Virus record (IMG/VR): IMGVR_UViG_2859799533_000004
Length of the DNA: 12,497 nt
Origin: a virus
Taxonomy: Duplodnaviria > Heunggongvirae > Uroviricota > Caudoviricetes
Reading direction: 5' to 3' (one strand)
The translations under genes and the position numbers were made by a program. The notes under the pieces are model-generated. The model did no database searches. It was not told the DNA's origin and saw only the letters and a program-made list of their open reading frames with translations. Every line of letters begins with the position of its first letter. The first letter of the stretch is position 1. Positions 4,290 to 12,497 of the stretch are shown piece after piece.

Positions 4290-4589
4290 ATGAAACTTAA
4301 ATATTCTGGCTTAACTGCCAGTGGCAACACTCACCCTAAATTTACGCGCGGTGATATTTACCGCGACCAGTACGGCGGCACGGTAATGATTAAGGGCGTG
4401 GAAGAACGGCGTGTAACCTACCGCCGTGAAGGTTACGAATATGATTGCGTGATGCCTGTTTATCAGTTCCGGCGTGATTTTTCTCTGGTACAGACCGCGC
4501 CGCATAACGTGCCCACCAGCAACGCCAGGGCACGGGCAAACATCCAGAAGCTGAAAACCATGGTTAACGGATTCAGGGGCAAGAAATGA
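4290..4589 (+). CDS. Hypothetical protein (99 aa) immediately upstream of, and coupled to, the replicase gene
   Basis: ATG 4290 with GGAGA upstream; its stop overlaps the rep start (ATGA). Confidence 0.65.
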   Translation: MKLKYSGLTASGNTHPKFTRGDIYRDQYGGTVMIKGVEERRVTYRREGYEYDCVMPVYQFRRDFSLVQTAPHNVPTSNARARANIQKLKTMVNGFRGKK

Positions 4590-5884
4590 AAAGCGCACCG
4601 AACTTAAAAAAACAGCCTTACGACAAGATGACCGAAGTCATTATTTTTGCGGGTAGTGATGCCTGGGCACATGCGAAACAGTGGCAGGAACAGGACGGGC
4701 GACTGGCTGGCGATAATGTGCCTCCCGTTGTGCTGGCTGATGATCAACTGGATGAACTGGCAGACCTGAGAATCATCGACGAGGGGCGCTATTGTGTCCG
4801 GCTGTACAAGGCAGGCCACATCAGGCCATCAAATATTAATGCCATTGCGCACAAGCTGGCGGCGGCGGGTGTAACTGATGCGAATTATTACCCCGAAGGG
4901 ATGCACAGCCATATGCGGGAGAACTGGCGCGAATACCTGGAACGGGTGCGCGGGAAAGAGCCGGCGGAAGAAAAAAACCACCAGCGAAAAACCACGCTAC
5001 CGATGAGCGTTGGATCTACCGGATACGACACGCAACTGGATTACGTGGTTAAGGGGATTATTCCGGCGGTATCGCTATGCAGCATATACGGAGCTAGCGG
5101 GTCCTATAAATCATTCCTTGCCGGATCGTGGGCGTGCCATGTTGCCACTGGTCGCCAGTGGGGAGGCCGCAGGGTTGCACATGGTGCGGTTCTCTATGTG
5201 GTTGGTGAAGGCGGTATAGGTGTTCCGCGTCGTGTAAAAGCCTGGGAGGTTGTGCACGATGAGCAGGTGAAAAATCTGTATCTGGTAAACCGCCCCATCT
5301 TTCCGGCTGCCCCGCTTGATGTTGATGAAATGGTTATCGCTGCCCGTCAGGTGGAGCGGGAAACGGGTAAACCTGTACGCATGATTATTCTGGATACGCT
5401 GGCGCGTTGCTTTGGTGGGAATGATGAAAATGATTCCCGTGATATGGGGGCGTTTATCCGTGGTTGTGACGAACTGAAACGACGCACAGGGGCCACGGTG
5501 CTGGTGGTTCACCATTCCGGCAAGGATGAGACGAAAGGCGCGCGCGGTTCCAGTGCATTTCGTGCTTCGCTGGATGCTGAATACCGGATACGCAGGGAGG
5601 ACGCAGGAAGCGAAGCGCTGGTTATCTCATGCACCAAAATGAAGGACGCGGAGGAACTCAAAGAAGCCGCATATGACTTACGCGTGGTGGAGCTTTTTAC
5701 CGACGCTGACGGTGAATTAATCACGTCGCTGGTGGTGGTGGATGATCCGCGCCCTCCTGTTGAACTGGAGCGCATCGAGGAGGCAGGGAACAAGACGGAA
5801 AACCATACCGCGCTATGGGGTGCATCCGTTCACGCACACAGAACGGCGACAAGTGCACGATCCCGCTGTTACGTGATGACATGA
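4586..5884 (+). CDS. Replication protein: RepA/DnaB-like RecA-fold P-loop ATPase (AAA_25-type helicase core) with ~150-aa N-terminal extension
   Basis: P-loop region IYGASGSYKSFLAGSWACHVATG (5090-5113), Walker B VRMIILDTLARCF, and the family-typical VLVVHHSGKDETKGARGSSA motif. The Walker A is non-canonical (Tyr where the Gly before Lys is expected). Confidence 0.82.
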   Translation: MKSAPNLKKQPYDKMTEVIIFAGSDAWAHAKQWQEQDGRLAGDNVPPVVLADDQLDELADLRIIDEGRYCVRLYKAGHIRPSNINAIAHKLAAAGVTDANYYPEGMHSHMRENWREYLERVRGKEPAEEKNHQRKTTLPMSVGSTGYDTQLDYVVKGIIPAVSLCSIYGASGSYKSFLAGSWACHVATGRQWGGRRVAHGAVLYVVGEGGIGVPRRVKAWEVVHDEQVKNLYLVNRPIFPAAPLDVDEMVIAARQVERETGKPVRMIILDTLARCFGGNDENDSRDMGAFIRGCDELKRRTGATVLVVHHSGKDETKGARGSSAFRASLDAEYRIRREDAGSEALVISCTKMKDAEELKEAAYDLRVVELFTDADGELITSLVVVDDPRPPVELERIEEAGNKTENHTALWGASVHAHRTATSARSRCYVMT

Positions 5885-6990: not shown

Positions 6991-7075
6991 ATTTATTGTT
7001 TTTAATTGTTTTGATGCAAAAAAGATGATGGTTATGGTTAATTTTTGTTCGACATCTTTGCAGGCAGATAAAAAA

Positions 7076-7110
7076 GCCCGATAAGGTCAGAGGTGGCTTA
7101 TCGGGCTTTT
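7076..7110. terminator. Strong bidirectional hairpin terminator
   Basis: GCCCGATAAG-N11-CTTATCGGGC (10-bp perfect stem) flanked by an A-run upstream and a T-run downstream. Confidence 0.6.
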
Positions 7111-7186
7111 GCATATGAGGCTTTTTGGTGCACTGACACACATGATCGGGATAATCATTTCATAATTTGCAACACAACTCAATATC

Positions 7187-7215
7187 ATTGCACAAAATGC
7201 AATCATGATTATAAT
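7187..7215 (+). promoter_or_regulatory. Candidate promoter of the capsid operon with an overlapping palindromic operator
   Basis: -35-like TTGCAC (7188-7193), 16-bp spacer, -10 TATAAT (7210-7215); palindrome ATTGCA-N5-TGCAAT at 7187-7203. Confidence 0.35.
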
Positions 7216-7271
7216 CAGAGCTGGATGAACATCCAGTTATGATTTTTTAAGTCGAAGAGGAATTTCTTACT

Positions 7272-7478
7272 ATGGCTGAAGAGAAAAAAGGCGGTGTTTC
7301 GGTGTACATAAGCCCCGAAATCGTGGAGGTGCTCAAGCAGCGCCACAAAAAAAACTATGAGGCTGGCGTGGCGGCTGGACTGGATCCGCTGATGACGCCG
7401 GAGCCGTCGATAGGTTCACTTGTACGCTCTTATTTACTTGCGGCGCTTGGGATGCATAAAAATTATGGGGGTGAATAA
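7272..7478 (+). CDS. Hypothetical protein (68 aa), first gene of the capsid operon
   Basis: ORF with GAGGA upstream; its stop overlaps the capsid gene start (TAATG). Confidence 0.55.
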   Translation: MAEEKKGGVSVYISPEIVEVLKQRHKKNYEAGVAAGLDPLMTPEPSIGSLVRSYLLAALGMHKNYGGE

Positions 7479-8533
7479 TGGCAGGCAAAGCAACGGCACT
7501 TAACACTCACCAGCTTTTTGCGTACCTGAATCGCGGGGATATTGCGGAATTTAAATTTAGTCCGCTGTTTACCACGCTGTTTTTCCCGAAAGTAGCGACA
7601 TTCAACACCCAAAACATCATGCTGGATAACCTGGACACCGAAGAAGTCACTATGTCAGCGTTTTGCTCGCCTATGGTTGGTAGCCAGGTACAGCGCGATA
7701 AAGGGTACGAAACCAGCACGATTAAACCTGGCTACATGAAGCCAAAGCACGAAATCGATCCAACAAAAACCATCATGCGCATGGCTGGAGAAGATCCGGC
7801 ACAGCTTAACGACCCAACCTATCGCCGTATGCGCCTGATTACTGGCAACATGCGCCGCCAGGTAAACGCTATTAAAGCGCGTGTTGAATGGCTGGCGGTA
7901 AATGCGGTAACGACCGGAAAAAACATCATTGAGGGCGAAGGCATAGAACGCTATGAAATCGACTGGAAGATGCCGGAAAACAACATCATAGAGCAGGCCA
8001 AAGGCCGTAAATGGTCCGAGCAGGACAAAGAAACCCACGATCCAATCTATGATATCGAGCTTTATGCGGATCAGGGCAATTGCCCCGCAAACGTCATGAT
8101 TATGGGCGCTGAGGTATGGCGCACGTTACGCAGCTTTAAAAAATTCCGCGAACTGTACGATCTTTCCCGTGGTTCAGAATCCGCCGCAGAACTGGCCTGT
8201 AAAAACCTGGGCGAAGTGGTGAGCTTTAAAGGCTATCTGGGCGATATTGCCCTTATCGTCTATTCCGGCAAATACGCCGACAGCGACGGCACCGAAAAAC
8301 ATTTCCTTGAGCCTGATTTGCTGGTCTTGGGCAACACCAACAATAAAGGGCTGGTTGCTTATGGTGCGATTATGGATCAGGAAGCGGTAAGAACGGGCGC
8401 AACGCAAAACATGTACTACCCGAAAAACTGGATTGAGGACGGCGATCCGGCGATTGAGTACGTGCAGACGCACAGCGCACCGCAGCCGGTGCCGGCAGAC
8501 ATTCGCAAATTTGTTACCGTCAAAATTGGTTAA
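7478..8533 (+). CDS. Major capsid protein, phage lambda gpE family
   Basis: 351 aa. Shares multiple blocks with lambda gpE as recalled: FKFSPLF..LFFP, PGYMKPKHE, EDPAQLNDPTYRRMR, RGSESAAEL..LGEVVSFKGYLGDIALIVYSGKY, YPKNW, GDPA. Similar length to gpE (341 aa). Confidence 0.85.
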   Translation: MAGKATALNTHQLFAYLNRGDIAEFKFSPLFTTLFFPKVATFNTQNIMLDNLDTEEVTMSAFCSPMVGSQVQRDKGYETSTIKPGYMKPKHEIDPTKTIMRMAGEDPAQLNDPTYRRMRLITGNMRRQVNAIKARVEWLAVNAVTTGKNIIEGEGIERYEIDWKMPENNIIEQAKGRKWSEQDKETHDPIYDIELYADQGNCPANVMIMGAEVWRTLRSFKKFRELYDLSRGSESAAELACKNLGEVVSFKGYLGDIALIVYSGKYADSDGTEKHFLEPDLLVLGNTNNKGLVAYGAIMDQEAVRTGATQNMYYPKNWIEDGDPAIEYVQTHSAPQPVPADIRKFVTVKIG

Positions 8534-8544
8534 CGGGGGATTCT

Positions 8545-8880
8545 ATGAACACTCCATACATTGAGTTATTTGCAGGCAGTCAGCAGGTATCCACGACGCT
8601 GGTACATTTTGCCGCTGATGCTGGCGTCATTCAGGAATTTACCCCGCTGATGCTGGCGGACAATGGCGAGTTTAAGCCGTGGGATGGTCAGGCGTCCGGA
8701 AAGGCTGTTTATCTGACTTCGTACCCCGTGGACACGTCAAAGCAGAAATCAGCACAGTGCTACAAGACGGGGATCTTTAATATCGCCGCCGTGAACTGGC
8801 CCGAGAGCGTCGACACCGATGCGAAAAAATGCGCCGCCTTTGCGGGTTCTGGCGTATCCGTTCAGCCGCTGGCCCGATAA
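8545..8880 (+). CDS. Head decoration protein, phage lambda gpD family
   Basis: 111 aa versus 110 aa for gpD. Shared motifs TPLMLAD, WDG, YKTG.F, WPE, KK.AAFAG. Confidence 0.78.
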   Translation: MNTPYIELFAGSQQVSTTLVHFAADAGVIQEFTPLMLADNGEFKPWDGQASGKAVYLTSYPVDTSKQKSAQCYKTGIFNIAAVNWPESVDTDAKKCAAFAGSGVSVQPLAR

Positions 8881-8892
8881 GCAGGGGGAACG

Positions 8893-9306
8893 ATGGCAAC
8901 GAATGAAAGCATCATGACGCTACCGCTGGCGAGTAAATTTAAAGCCGAAGCGCGGGCAATGGCTGACAGAGGTTTATCAACCTACGAGGCCGTATATCAA
9001 CTCAACAAACTGGAAGAGCAGGACAAGCCGCGCGCTGATGCGATTATGGCGCTTCATGAGCATAACGACTATCAGCCGCTGTTACGTGCAATGGCAAACG
9101 TGCCTTGTATCGATGTTGGTACGGCTAAAAGCATCCTTAGCATGACCATAGAGCAGGAACGCCAGAAGGTTGCGCCGGAGCTTACCGCAGCCTTTGAAAA
9201 CTTTATGGACATGCACAGCCCGCAAGCCGTTTCAGCTGGCATGGCATACGACGGCAGAAACCCGGGCGATGATGGCGACATCGAGAGCATACTGAAAACC
9301 ATCTGA
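8893..9306 (+). CDS. Hypothetical protein (137 aa), last gene of the capsid operon, immediately upstream of cos
   Basis: ORF with GGGGGAA SD; no family recognised. Candidate packaging accessory protein by position only. Confidence 0.6.
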   Translation: MATNESIMTLPLASKFKAEARAMADRGLSTYEAVYQLNKLEEQDKPRADAIMALHEHNDYQPLLRAMANVPCIDVGTAKSILSMTIEQERQKVAPELTAAFENFMDMHSPQAVSAGMAYDGRNPGDDGDIESILKTI

Positions 9307-9311
9307 GACAA

Positions 9312-9334
9312 GGCCGGAGAAATCCGGCTTTTTT
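9312..9334 (+). terminator. Rho-independent terminator after the capsid operon
   Basis: GCCGGA-gaaa-TCCGGC hairpin plus TTTTTTT; nearly identical to the terminator at 6873-6894. Confidence 0.7.
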
Positions 9335-9420
9335 TACGGGTCCTTTCCGGCATATGGACCCGTTACGGGGCGGCGACCTCGCGGGTTTTCGCTATTTATG
9401 ACGTTTTTCCGTGAAGGTGA
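9335..9420 (+). other. Lambda-type cohesive-end site (S2): cosQ, cosN and the start of a lambda-like cosB
   Basis: ACGGGTCCTTTCCGG...GACCCGTTACG then GGGCGGCGACCT (9367-9378) CGCGGGTTTTCGCTATTTATGA matches the lambda right-end/left-end junction as recalled; followed by CGTTTTTCCGTG, resembling lambda R3. Confidence 0.85.
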
Positions 9421-9468
9421 CACCACCACCACTTGATTAATATTTAACCATGCAGTTAAGGTAACATT

Positions 9469-9909
9469 ATGATTGATAAAGCTTGTTTTGTAAGTCAGCA
9501 GGAAATAGCTGAACATTTCAAGGTTAACAGAACCACTATTCGCGCATGGACCAAACAGGGGATGCCGTATCTTAATGCGGATCGCGGAAAGTCTGGCGGT
9601 TATCACATCGGGCATACATTGCTTTGGTCTTCAGGTAAAAGCCGTCTTGAGGCCATCAGATATCACGTAGAAACCAGTGCGCTGGAAAAAATTATGTTTG
9701 CCAGGCTGCTTTCATCTGAGCGTGACGAGTACTCCAGTGAAGAAACAGAACATAGATTTGATGAAGGTTTACAGATTTACGGCTACTCACCGGAAGAAGT
9801 GAGCAAAGCGCGAAATAAAATGGCCGGCTTTCTGGCTGGGTGGCGTCATGCCGTAAGCGTTCGCCGTGCCAGCATGGAACAATCAGTCGTTACAGAACAG
9901 CAAAGTTAA
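9469..9909 (+). CDS. Small-terminase-like protein with Nu1-type N-terminal winged-HTH; candidate island packaging-specificity factor
   Basis: N-terminus VSQQEIAEHFKVNRTTIRAWTKQGMPYL parallels lambda Nu1 VNKKQLADIFGASIRTIQNWQEQGMPVL; the C-terminal half is unrelated to Nu1. Gene sits directly downstream of cos, as Nu1 does in lambda. Confidence 0.72.
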   Translation: MIDKACFVSQQEIAEHFKVNRTTIRAWTKQGMPYLNADRGKSGGYHIGHTLLWSSGKSRLEAIRYHVETSALEKIMFARLLSSERDEYSSEETEHRFDEGLQIYGYSPEEVSKARNKMAGFLAGWRHAVSVRRASMEQSVVTEQQS

Positions 9910-9939
9910 AAATCACTTTCTGTTACGCCATCAAATACG

Positions 9940-10090
9940 CAATACAACAACCACGTATTTTTTTAAAACTATTTGATTCAATTAGCATTTTTTTATTTTT
10001 AGCATCAAAAAAACACTATCAGGTTGTTGTATTGCTCTTTATTTTTACTTAGTTATCAAATGGATATGACAAACAATTAAACAACAACCT
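9940..10090. promoter_or_regulatory. cosB-like region for the inverted cos: three ACAACAACC sites in alternating orientation with an intervening partial IHF motif
   Basis: GCAATACAACAACC (9940-9953, +), GGTTGTTGTATTGC (10022-10035, inverted, perfect 14-bp IR), ACAACAACCT (10081-10090, +); TATCAAatggATA at 10054-10066 matches WATCAA of the IHF consensus but not its TTR end. Confidence 0.4.
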
Positions 10091-10103
10091 CCCTCTAAAA
10101 AAG

Positions 10104-10169
10104 CTCATAAATAGCGAAAAACCGCGAGGTCGCCGCCCCGTAACGGGCCATAATTCCAGGAAGGACCCG
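10104..10169 (-). other. Second lambda-type cos site (S3) in inverted orientation
   Basis: Reverse complement reads CGGGTCCTTCCTGG..GGCCCGTTACGGGGCGGCGACCTCGCGGTTTTTCGCTATTTATGA; the cosN 12-mer is identical to S2 (complement at 10127-10138), and the flanks are about 85-90 percent identical to S2. Confidence 0.8.
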
Positions 10170-10202
10170 ACGACACCAGACTATCAGAACGATGGGGGCA
10201 CA

Positions 10203-10484
10203 ATGACAGAAGCCGAAATACTGCGATTAATCCGCCGCGTTGCCGGAATCAGCCAGCAGGCCGACGAACAGACCACGCAGCCGGACAGCGTGACCGCCGA
10301 AAATTATGTTCGTGTGGTTGCTGAGGTGATTCGCCGTAATGGTATCCAGCTTAATGATGTGGATATGCGCAACATACGGATCCGCGTTCTTGAAATGCTG
10401 GCCTACAATCGCCGCGTGGCACTGTATCGGGAAACGGAGAAAATTACGTACCACTGGAAGAAGCCGGAGCGGTTGCGGCGGTAA
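10203..10484 (+). CDS. Hypothetical protein (93 aa), 3' accessory gene of the island
   Basis: ATG 10203 with GGGGG SD 6 nt upstream; protein-like composition; no family recognised. Confidence 0.5.
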   Translation: MTEAEILRLIRRVAGISQQADEQTTQPDSVTAENYVRVVAEVIRRNGIQLNDVDMRNIRIRVLEMLAYNRRVALYRETEKITYHWKKPERLRR

Positions 10485-10652
10485 CTGGTTGATATTTTCG
10501 AAATTCGCCAGCGGCGAACATCGGGGAAACCAGCCTAACCCGTTGATATTTTCGGGAACCTCAAATTGAAGAGGTCGGAAACATAACCCGTCATATTCTG
10601 GATGCTGATAATTACCACGCAGCCCATTAAGGCCTAACCCGTTGATTCTTCC
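10482..10652 (+). repeat. Four degenerate direct repeats of about 19 bp (TAACCCGTTGATATTTTCG) at 48-54 bp period
   Basis: Copies at 10482-10500, 10536-10554, 10584-10600 and 10635-10652, starting at the stop codon of the preceding ORF. Confidence 0.6.
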
Positions 10653-10931
10653 ACAATCCCCCATTGGGGAGGCTGGGCGGCCTGCTGTGGGCTTTTCCAC
10701 CATTGGTGGAAAGGCGCACATCTGGATCATCATTACGGTGATCAAGGGTATGTAAAACCCACCAGCCTGATTGACATTTAACCGGAAAAAAGCCAGGTAG
10801 CCCCGTTATGGGGATCCCCATATCGACATTAACGCCCCTCATGAATTGGCGCGCTTCCCCCTGGAAAGATGACCCGCCTGTATATTTCTTGTGTCTATTT
10901 GTTCCACGTTGTTTCATACAGTGCAACGATC

Positions 10932-10955
10932 GGTGTAGTTAATGGTGTAGTCAAT
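10932..10955 (+). repeat. Tandem 12-bp direct repeat GGTGTAGT(T/C)AAT
   Basis: Two adjacent copies, 11 of 12 identical, followed by a GCACT-N5-AGTGC dyad, in the region downstream of phoQ. Confidence 0.45.
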
Positions 10956-11036
10956 TTGCGATTTTTAGCACTTTTGCAGTGCAAATCATTTAATTAAATC
11001 AATGGCTTGCCTTGATGTAGTGATAAAAGGACATAT

Positions 11037-12497
11037 TTATTCATCTTTCGGCGCAGAATGCTGGCGACCAAAAATCACCTCCATCCGCGCACCGCCCAGC
11101 ATGCTCTCTCCGGCGACGATTTTACCCTCATATTGCTCGGTGATTTCGCGGGCTACCGCCAGCCCTACACCTTGCCCAGGGCGTAAAGTATCAACCCGTT
11201 GACCACGGTCGAAAATGACCTCTCGCTTGCTTAATGGAATACCGGGGCCATCATCCTCGACCACAATATAGAGATGCTCGTCGGTTTGCCTTGCAGAAAT
11301 TTCGACAAACTCGAGGCAATATTTACAGGCATTATCCAGCACGTTGCCCATCACCTCGACAAAATCGTTCTGCTCACCGACAAAGCTGATCTCTGGCGAA
11401 ATATCGAGAGAGATATTGACCCCTTTGCGTTGATACACTTTGTTCAGCGCTGAGGTGAGATTGTCCAGCAGTGGGGCGACCGGATGCAGCTCGCGGCTGA
11501 GCAATGTCCCGCCGCGCATACTGGCACGATGCAGGTAGTAGCCAATTTGCTGTGAAATGCGGCTGATTTGCTCCAGCATTACCGGCTCAGCATCACTGAC
11601 GCTCATCTTTTCACTACGCAGAGAACGCAGCGTACTTTGCAGCACCGCCAGTGGCGTTTTCAGACTATGGGTCAGGTCGGTGAGCGTCGTACGGTATTTG
11701 TCGTAACGTTCGCGTTCACTTTTTAACAATCGGTTCAGGTTTCGTACCAGACTGGTCAGTTCTCGCGTTGTGGCTGGATTGAGCAATTCGCGGTTATGTT
11801 CTTCCAGTTCGCGGACTTCTTTTGCCAGGGCTTCGATGGGGCGTAAACTCCACCAGGCGGCGACCCACAGCAGCGGGATCACTAACAGCAGATTGGCTGA
11901 GAGCACATAGATAAACCAGCTCCAGACCATATAGGAACTTTTTAGCTCCACCGGAATGGTATCCACCACCACAATGGTTAATTTTGGCATCCGCGATGTT
12001 GCCGGGTAGACGTTTACTGCCACCGAGTGGGTCATCTCCGCGTCGTCATCATCTTCCCGCACTTCCTGCAACTGTTGCTGTATCGAATGATCTCCACTCA
12101 GCAAGAGGCTGGTATCGTTAACATCCGCTTCAATTTCATGAAAACCATTCGATTTCAGCCAGTCAGGCTGGATCATCTTCATCAGCCAGGGCACGTCACG
12201 TTGCGCCCATAAAAGCTGCCCGTTCTCATCATAAATTAGCGTCATGGTGGGGCTTTGCTTGTCGATATTTTCGGGTAACTCGACATGCAACTTATTGTTT
12301 TCCCACTTCGCAAGGGTATAGAACAGATTGCTCTCGCCACGTAACAGCCGAAACGTAGTTTTATCGAAACTGACGCTATAACCGATCAGCGCGACCATTC
12401 CGTAGGCAAGCGAAAGCACCAGTACTACCGCAGCCGTTGCCAACAGAAAACGTACCCGCAGCGAGAGCGGGAAAAAAAGACGCAGTAATTTTTTCAT
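11037..12497 (-). CDS. phoQ: Sensor histidine kinase PhoQ of the PhoP/PhoQ two-component system (chromosomal flank)
   Basis: Complete 486-aa ORF recognised as PhoQ: N-terminus [41 protein letters not shown], periplasmic acidic patch [13 protein letters not shown], phosphoacceptor [11 protein letters not shown], and kinase G-boxes DDGPGIP and GQGVGLAVA. Confidence 0.97.

Follow-up and report, generated by a model that had tools for sequence, protein, structure and literature searches.

The DNA examined here carries the cohesive-end sequence of phage lambda immediately upstream of a gene that resembles a small terminase (TerS), which raises the question of whose terminase cuts this site and what makes the terminase choose it. 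The window, as we call the whole analysed stretch of 12,497 nucleotides, had previously been given a sequence-only reading: a lambda-identical cosN, preceded by a cosQ-like sequence and followed by a divergent cosB and a TerS-like gene, would allow the terminase of a lambdoid helper to cut and package the island, while island-specific cosB determinants would decide the specificity. In short, we consider it very probable that the published Rpp mechanism acts at this site (cos1, 9338-9549) in a phage-inducible chromosomal island (PICI) of the EcCICFT073 family. The packaging site is real but already known, being the experimentally tested "cos1" of that family.

The window holds an 11-kb PICI sited between roxA and phoQ. 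Eighteen complete E. coli genomes match 80% or more of the window, and in strain 2017C-4173W12 the island is flanked by roxA and phoQ. Its genes encode an integrase, AlpA, a RepA-type helicase, SSB, a lambda-E-like capsid protein and a D-like decoration protein, followed by ORFs of 137 and 146 aa; neither terL nor tail genes were found in the island. A 36-nt direct repeat (35/36 positions matching; 2944-2979 and 13924-13959 on the extended locus, L001) bounds an island unit of 10,980 bp. These island genes and the repeats that enclose them give the locus the architecture of a PICI, with an integrase, an AlpA regulator, its own replication genes, att repeats and a length in the ~10-15 kb size class.

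The capsid block (7478-9306) codes for the major capsid protein of lambda-E type (Pfam E = 4e-50), the D-like decoration protein and the 137-aa protein, which over residues 46-119 shows a weak similarity to the C-terminal portion of head maturation protease/scaffold proteins (phrog_53, E = 5e-8). In the 2018 paper on EcCICFT073, the major capsid-like and decoration-like proteins were not responsible for interference (PMC6092414). A hairpin with a T-run closes the block, with an RNA fold of -17.6 kcal/mol (z = -4.3) that none of 200 shuffles equalled in stability. A consensus terminator scan did not list this hairpin; its only match was the cosN palindrome of the second cos site described below, which we do not read as a terminator. 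The replication module has been exchanged, a RepA-family helicase (AAA_25, 4586-5884) occupying the place of the DNA primase family protein of CFT073 (L003, 9242-10996). With this module swapped while the integrase, alpA and the late region are almost the same in the two, the island is a mosaic relative of EcCICFT073 and not a new kind of island.

We compared cos1 base by base with lambda, using the cos of the lambda-derived phage DE3 as the reference. All 12 nucleotides of cosN agree, as the sequence-only reading had stated, but its coordinates of 9367-9378 were one base too far left, and the termini that it had placed at 9366/9367 are predicted, from homology with lambda, at 9367/9368 on the top strand and 9379/9380 on the bottom strand. 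The claimed cosQ-like sequence is also present: the heptamer GGGTCCT, which we take to be lambda cosQ, starts 30 nt upstream of the top-strand nick position, as in lambda. The sequence TTTACGGGTCCTTTCCGG is the same in the window and in lambda, and a 17-nt spacer that is partly alike follows; across 9362-9401, which comprises GTTACG, cosN and CGCGGGTTTTCGCTATTTATGA, 40 of 40 positions match. On the 3' side come a CGT/AAA difference and a shared TTTTCCG (9403-9409), and past about 9409 the similarity is lost. Since neither lambda R-site core (CGTTTCC or GGAAACG) occurs within 9300-10200, the cosB of cos1 is a divergent one and not that of lambda, which bears out the earlier description. The whole cosQ-spacer-cosN stretch equals that of phage PhiR5_1, and a phage of this type is possibly a natural helper. 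The coordinates of all features are collected in Table 1.

Table 1. Features of the packaging region and of the island ends, in window coordinates.
Feature	Position	Strand	Remarks
attL	21-56 nt left of window start		36-nt repeat partner of attR
Hairpin + T-run, intrinsic-terminator-like	9310-9335	+	Closes capsid-gene block; immediately 5' of cosQ
cosQ of cos1	9338-9350	+	Core GGGTCCT at 9338-9344; GGGTCCTTTCCGG as in lambda
cosN of cos1, 12-nt cohesive-end sequence GGGCGGCGACCT	9368-9379	+	12/12 as in lambda
Island-specific cosB of cos1	9409-9549	+	Overlaps first 81 nt of rppA; homologous to transplanted fragment
Invariant CACCACCACCAC block	9421-9432	+	At lambda R3 position; candidate RppA-TerS recognition element
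rppA (redirecting phage packaging protein), 146 aa	9469-9909	+	141/144 identical to RppA of CFT073
cosB of cos2, phage type	9939-10100	-	R3/R2/R1-like array
R1-like GGTTGTTGTATTGC of cos2	9952->9939	-	
R2-like GCAATACAACAACC of cos2	10035->10022	inverted	
R3-like GGTTGTTGT of cos2	10089->10081	-	
cosN of cos2, exact lambda 12-mer	10127-10138	-	Convergent with cos1; the published cos2
cosQ core of cos2, GGGTCCT	10168->10162	-	30 nt from nick
attR	10924-10959	+	Copy of 36-nt repeat; from repeat comparison and flanking genes roxA/phoQ

The region 9311-9560 is identical to EcCICFT073 cos1 at 249 of 250 positions, and the cos1 sequence agrees with the "EcCICFT073 cos1" printed in Fig. S1A of PMC6739421. 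Alignment with the CFT073 island gives 93.9% identity over window 7070-9905 and 98.6% over 10097-12497. EcCICFT073 has been studied experimentally (Fillol-Salom et al. 2018 ISME J, PMC6092414; 2019 Mol Cell, PMC6739421). Both of its two cos sites are functional: deletion of cos1 strongly lowers lambda- and phi80-mediated transfer, deletion of cos2 raises it, and no transfer is left when both are deleted. Transfer also depends absolutely on the phage terS. RppA and the phage TerS form a heterodimer with a hybrid DNA-binding domain, and this pair recognises the island's own cosB; in plasmid transfer, RppA lowers the transfer of phage-cos plasmids and raises that of cos1 plasmids. The DNA is packaged in phage-sized heads, and it is for EcCICFT073 only that helper-dependent induction, packaging, transfer and helper interference have been demonstrated (PMC6092414, PMC6739421). 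Transfer assays are what these papers report; physical mapping of the EcCICFT073 termini was not found in their text.

The same papers show that dependence on RppA is conferred solely by the cosB of cos1, also after transplantation into phage 80 (PMC6092414, PMC6739421). The fragment that made phage packaging RppA-dependent when moved into phage 80 (PMC6739421) is homologous to window 9409-9549, limits that were obtained by mapping the ends of the primers phi80quimera-cosB-3m/4c (supplement file 2, PMC6739421) onto the window, and this equivalent lies inside the region of 249/250 identity. For an almost identical site, the published mechanism is thus that the terminase of a lambdoid helper cuts and packages the island and that an island-specific cosB decides the specificity, so that what had been proposed from the sequence was correct yet already known.

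Transferred to the window, the mechanism would run as follows. Induction of a helper would lead to excision and replication of the island and to the formation of concatemers. RppA, encoded just 3' of cos1, would bind the helper's small terminase (a Nu1-type TerS), and the hybrid DNA-binding domain would no longer recognise phage cosB but would recognise that of the island. The phage large terminase would thus be brought to the lambda-identical cosN and would nick it at the predicted positions, 9367/9368 (top) and 9379/9380 (bottom). Packaging would then proceed rightwards with rppA first, and cosQ would act in ending it when a further cos1 along the concatemer is reached. About four 11-kb units (4 x 10.98 kb = 43.9 kb) would probably fill a lambda-sized head; for EcCICFT073, the papers describe DNA of phage size. 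The window itself contributes to this scheme its anatomy, a site and a protein almost identical to those tested, and a module of cosQ, cosN, CACCACCACCAC and rpp that is conserved across genera; that cos1 is required, that RppA and TerS form a heterodimer and what the cosB swaps showed come from the EcCICFT073 papers and not from the window island itself. Against a plain transfer of the mechanism stand the differences from CFT073 in the replication module and in the cos2 cosB.

Which part of the island cosB might be read can be approached through conservation. The region 5' of rpp was aligned for eight Rpp-linked sites together with lambda and PhiR5_1. Common to all eight are cosQ, which is invariant in both phages as well, a TTATGA box and an invariant CACCACCACCAC block at cos positions 54-65, where lambda has its R3 core (53-59). 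In 13 of 13 loci retrieved through Rpp proteins, the block occurs as a single copy, on the plus strand, 5' of rpp; it is absent from the four phage cos loci examined and from the rpp-less island of E. coli B771. In IMG/VR, the pattern TTATGA...CACCACCACCAC alone proved too permissive (at least 120 loci, mostly chance), and demanding cosQ at the right distance as a filter left 15 loci. All 15 of these contigs, found by DNA alone, have rpp directly downstream, and they include an Rpp homologue just 42% identical to the nearest query Rpp. At least eight cosN variants are paired with the block and rpp, among them GGGCGTCGACCT, GGGCGGCAGACT, GGGCGACGCGCT and, in RppB-like islands, one of another kind altogether.

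From this pattern we infer that cosQ-cosN tracks the large terminase of the local helper and the block tracks Rpp, and the CACCACCACCAC block appears to be the best candidate for the element read by the Rpp-TerS hybrid. The presence of one copy in cos1 as against three R sites in lambda counts against recognition through the block. Repeats of the form AAGGT(T)RACA (9414, 9457 and 9520) were considered as R-like sites and dropped, because the one at 9457 is the ribosome-binding region of rpp and the one at 9520 codes for the invariant NRTTIR motif, and because the second and third copies are not kept as DNA in Salmonella. A likeness of CACCACCACCAC to the ACAACAACC R elements of cos2 was set aside since, with respect to cosN, the two point in opposite directions. 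Of these elements, the R1-like ATACAACAACCAC (window 9942-9954) differs from the Rpp-associated block, ACACCACCACCAC, by three mismatches and, with respect to its own cosN, runs the other way from the block; this likeness may be a coincidence.

The sequence-only reading was right about cos1 but overlooked a second, inverted cos site at 10127-10138, the phage type of its cosB, and the CACCACCACCAC block. The two cosQ-cosN arms form an inverted repeat of 72 nt (9337-9408 versus 10098-10169, 86% complementary), and the convergent sites enclose the 146-aa ORF. In cos2, the R3/R2/R1-like elements stand in the order and orientation of lambda, with sequences other than lambda's. The stretch 9906-10096, which contains these elements, has no counterpart in CFT073 in the alignment; over its full length, the cos2 cosB aligns with the cos of a lambdoid prophage in E. 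coli O111 11128, lying directly 5' of the prophage terS/terL. A blastn search of the phage collection with the cos2 cosB region matched the cosQ/cosN part and not cosB; the phage relatives of this cosB were seen only as E. coli prophages, by distant-mode search. In CFT073, by contrast, cos2 bears elements of the CATGTCCGG type and shares ~96% identity with a cos that stands just 5' of terS in another prophage. Of 18 distinct E. coli-type loci with cos2, 10 have a cosB of type C, 6 one of type B and 2 one of a third type, so that related islands carry at least three types of cassette, probably from different lambdoid prophage lineages. The prophage matches and the differing cassettes together make cos2 a captured, exchangeable phage cos.

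Two further observations concern the arms themselves. In a related island of E. coli B771 (L006, 3170-3770; NZ_CP120557.1), which sits at a different chromosomal site, next to yejO, rppA is lost except for its 3' end, a CATGTCCGG cassette occupies the cos1 position and a GGTTGTTGT cassette that of cos2, and both cosN copies read GGGCGTCGACCT, with the same G-to-T change, suggesting that one inverted arm has converted the other or that both have been fitted to a single helper. In three IMG/VR contigs (L019, L083 and L134), the cosQ-spacer of cos1 has the cos2-typical sequence GGGTCCTTCCTGGAATTATGG..., which indicates a probable exchange between the two inverted arms.

It might be argued that cos2 is the main packaging site with the natural helper or helpers, read without Rpp by the TerS of GGTTGTTGT-type lambdoid phages, and that cos1 and RppA serve lambda- and phi80-like helpers only. 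The complete phage-type cosB with R3, R2 and R1 in the lambda arrangement, its alignment with the O111 prophage cos, the similar kinship of CFT073 cos2 (~96%) with a prophage cos, the B771 island that has phage-type cosB at both positions and no rppA, and the functionality of both cos sites in the EcCICFT073 papers are all in keeping with this view. With lambda and phi80, however, cos1 is required and deletion of cos2 raises transfer (PMC6092414), and the islands of Klebsiella, Phytobacter and Salmonella carry cos1 and rpp with no cos2 within reach, which marks cos1 as the conserved core. We regard this alternative as unlikely, and it is in any case compatible with the Rpp mechanism acting at cos1.

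Because cos1 and cos2 face each other, cutting at both would free only the 771-bp rppA segment. Such double cutting may be why transfer rose when cos2 was deleted in the published lambda experiments, and it suggests that cos2 is useful only with a different helper.

The gene 3' of cos1 is rppA. Its product is identical to RppA of CFT073 (c1503) at 141 of 144 positions, is similar to RppC in its crystal structure 6HLK (E = 2.4e-31), and has residues R21-T22 and F121, which are invariant in 14 homologues; R21-T22 are required for cos1 recognition, and F121 is the position of the F121R mutant (PMC6739421). The earlier description of a TerS-like gene holds for the N-terminal HTH (residues 7-47; phrog_57, E = 3.4e-8), the only TerS-like part, and fails for the gene as a whole, which encodes RppA and not TerS. 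That HTH, and a placement relative to cos like that of nu1, might point to an autonomous small terminase of the island's own, taking the place of the phage TerS in the manner of pac-type SaPIs. We hold this to be highly improbable: Pfam gave weak HTH matches and no Phage_Nu1 match at E <= 0.01, full-length similarity to Nu1, including its oligomerisation and TerL-binding parts, is not seen in the 9469-9909 ORF, and the idea is contradicted by the published terS deletion and by the heterodimerisation of Rpp with phage TerS. Hardest of all to credit is that cos1 arose by chance or is a non-functional remnant of a lambdoid prophage that has decayed. Of 5,426 complete E. coli genomes, 4,189 do have cosQ-cosN-like sequences from prophages (the full cos1 + rppA 5' module is present in 83 of the 5,426), but two matches to GGGCGGCGACCT with at most one mismatch were found against 0.04 expected per window after shuffling, the site belongs to an 11-kb island that has clear limits, int, alpA and its own replication genes and that lacks terL and tail genes, the module is kept with rpp across genera, and a near-identical copy functions in published transfer experiments.

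The Rpp family is small: its 17 clusters come from E. coli, Klebsiella, Phytobacter and Salmonella. Its loci were gathered via exact-protein look-ups, and a scan of genome contigs with the Rpp alignment gave no confirmed locus. Salmonella enterica islands (L012, 758-1608; L015, 2573-3441) have two tandem rpp-like genes 3' of cos1, the first of them divergent in sequence. In one of these Salmonella loci (L015, 4590-6441) and in a Phytobacter locus (L017, 3447-5786), lambdoid tail/FI genes lie directly 3' of rpp, namely Packaging_FI, Minor_tail_Z, tail_U and a tape measure gene, a layout that fits satellites residing within the late operon of a helper prophage (compare PMC10111431).

Beyond the mechanism at cos1, we tentatively propose, with somewhat more doubt than conviction, that the packaging region is a modular, reassorting system: a cosQ-cosN that tracks the helper, a private cosB marked by CACCACCACCAC, and a swappable convergent cos2 cassette, confined to E. 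coli, that serves Rpp-independent helpers, with mutual interference between the sites. If this is true, cos2 would permit direct packaging by helpers whose TerS Rpp cannot capture, and the cost is that the convergent sites interfere when both are used, which would account for the higher transfer without cos2. The captured cos of another helper lineage would also give a rationale for a second cos site that has been unexplained.

A full-text literature search found PICI cos1/cos2 discussed only in PMC6092414 and PMC6739421, and in neither was the phage origin of the cos2 cosB or the conserved block found described, so both may be undescribed; they are refinements of a known system. As the mechanism is a published one that has been rediscovered, the value of the present analysis lies in correct annotation, the window being an EcCICFT073-family PICI that lambda-type helpers are predicted to mobilise. 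The CACCACCACCAC block offers a precise candidate for the Rpp-TerS DNA element, which the papers left undefined experimentally, and both the block and the origin of cos2 are relevant to predicting the range of islands that a given phage can mobilise.

Compared with known systems, cos1 resembles lambda cos in having the cosQ core at the same distance of 30 nt, an unbroken run of 40 identical nucleotides over cosN and its right flank, and a downstream gene with a Nu1-like HTH. Where lambda cosB consists of R3, I1, R2 and R1, cos1 is without lambda R sites and has one CACCACCACCAC block at the R3 position; the downstream gene encodes a 146-aa partner of TerS rather than Nu1, and the island has no terL. 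EcCICFT073 has the same roxA-phoQ chromosomal site and the same order of capsid-E-like gene, decoration-D-like gene, 137-aa ORF, cos1, rppA, inverted cos2 and 93-aa ORF. It differs in having a primase instead of a RepA-type helicase, in several early genes, and in a cos2 cosB of the CATGTCCGG type, whereas that of the window is of the GGTTGTTGT type.

The cos-type SaPIs (SaPIbov5 and SaPIbov4) follow the same principle, in that a satellite bearing the cos of its helper is packaged by the helper terminase, and SaPIbov4 has two putative cos sites as well (PMC6092414). In the island, by contrast, cosB is private and requires an Rpp that reprograms the phage TerS, and the hosts, phages and sequences of the SaPIs are unrelated to its own. 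Satellite P4 is likewise integrative and has int, a regulator of the AlpA type, replication genes of its own and a cos of the helper (P2) type (PMC6092414). P4, however, relies on the unmodified specificity of the P2 terminase and remodels capsid size, whereas EcCICFT073 is reported to be packaged in phage-sized heads.
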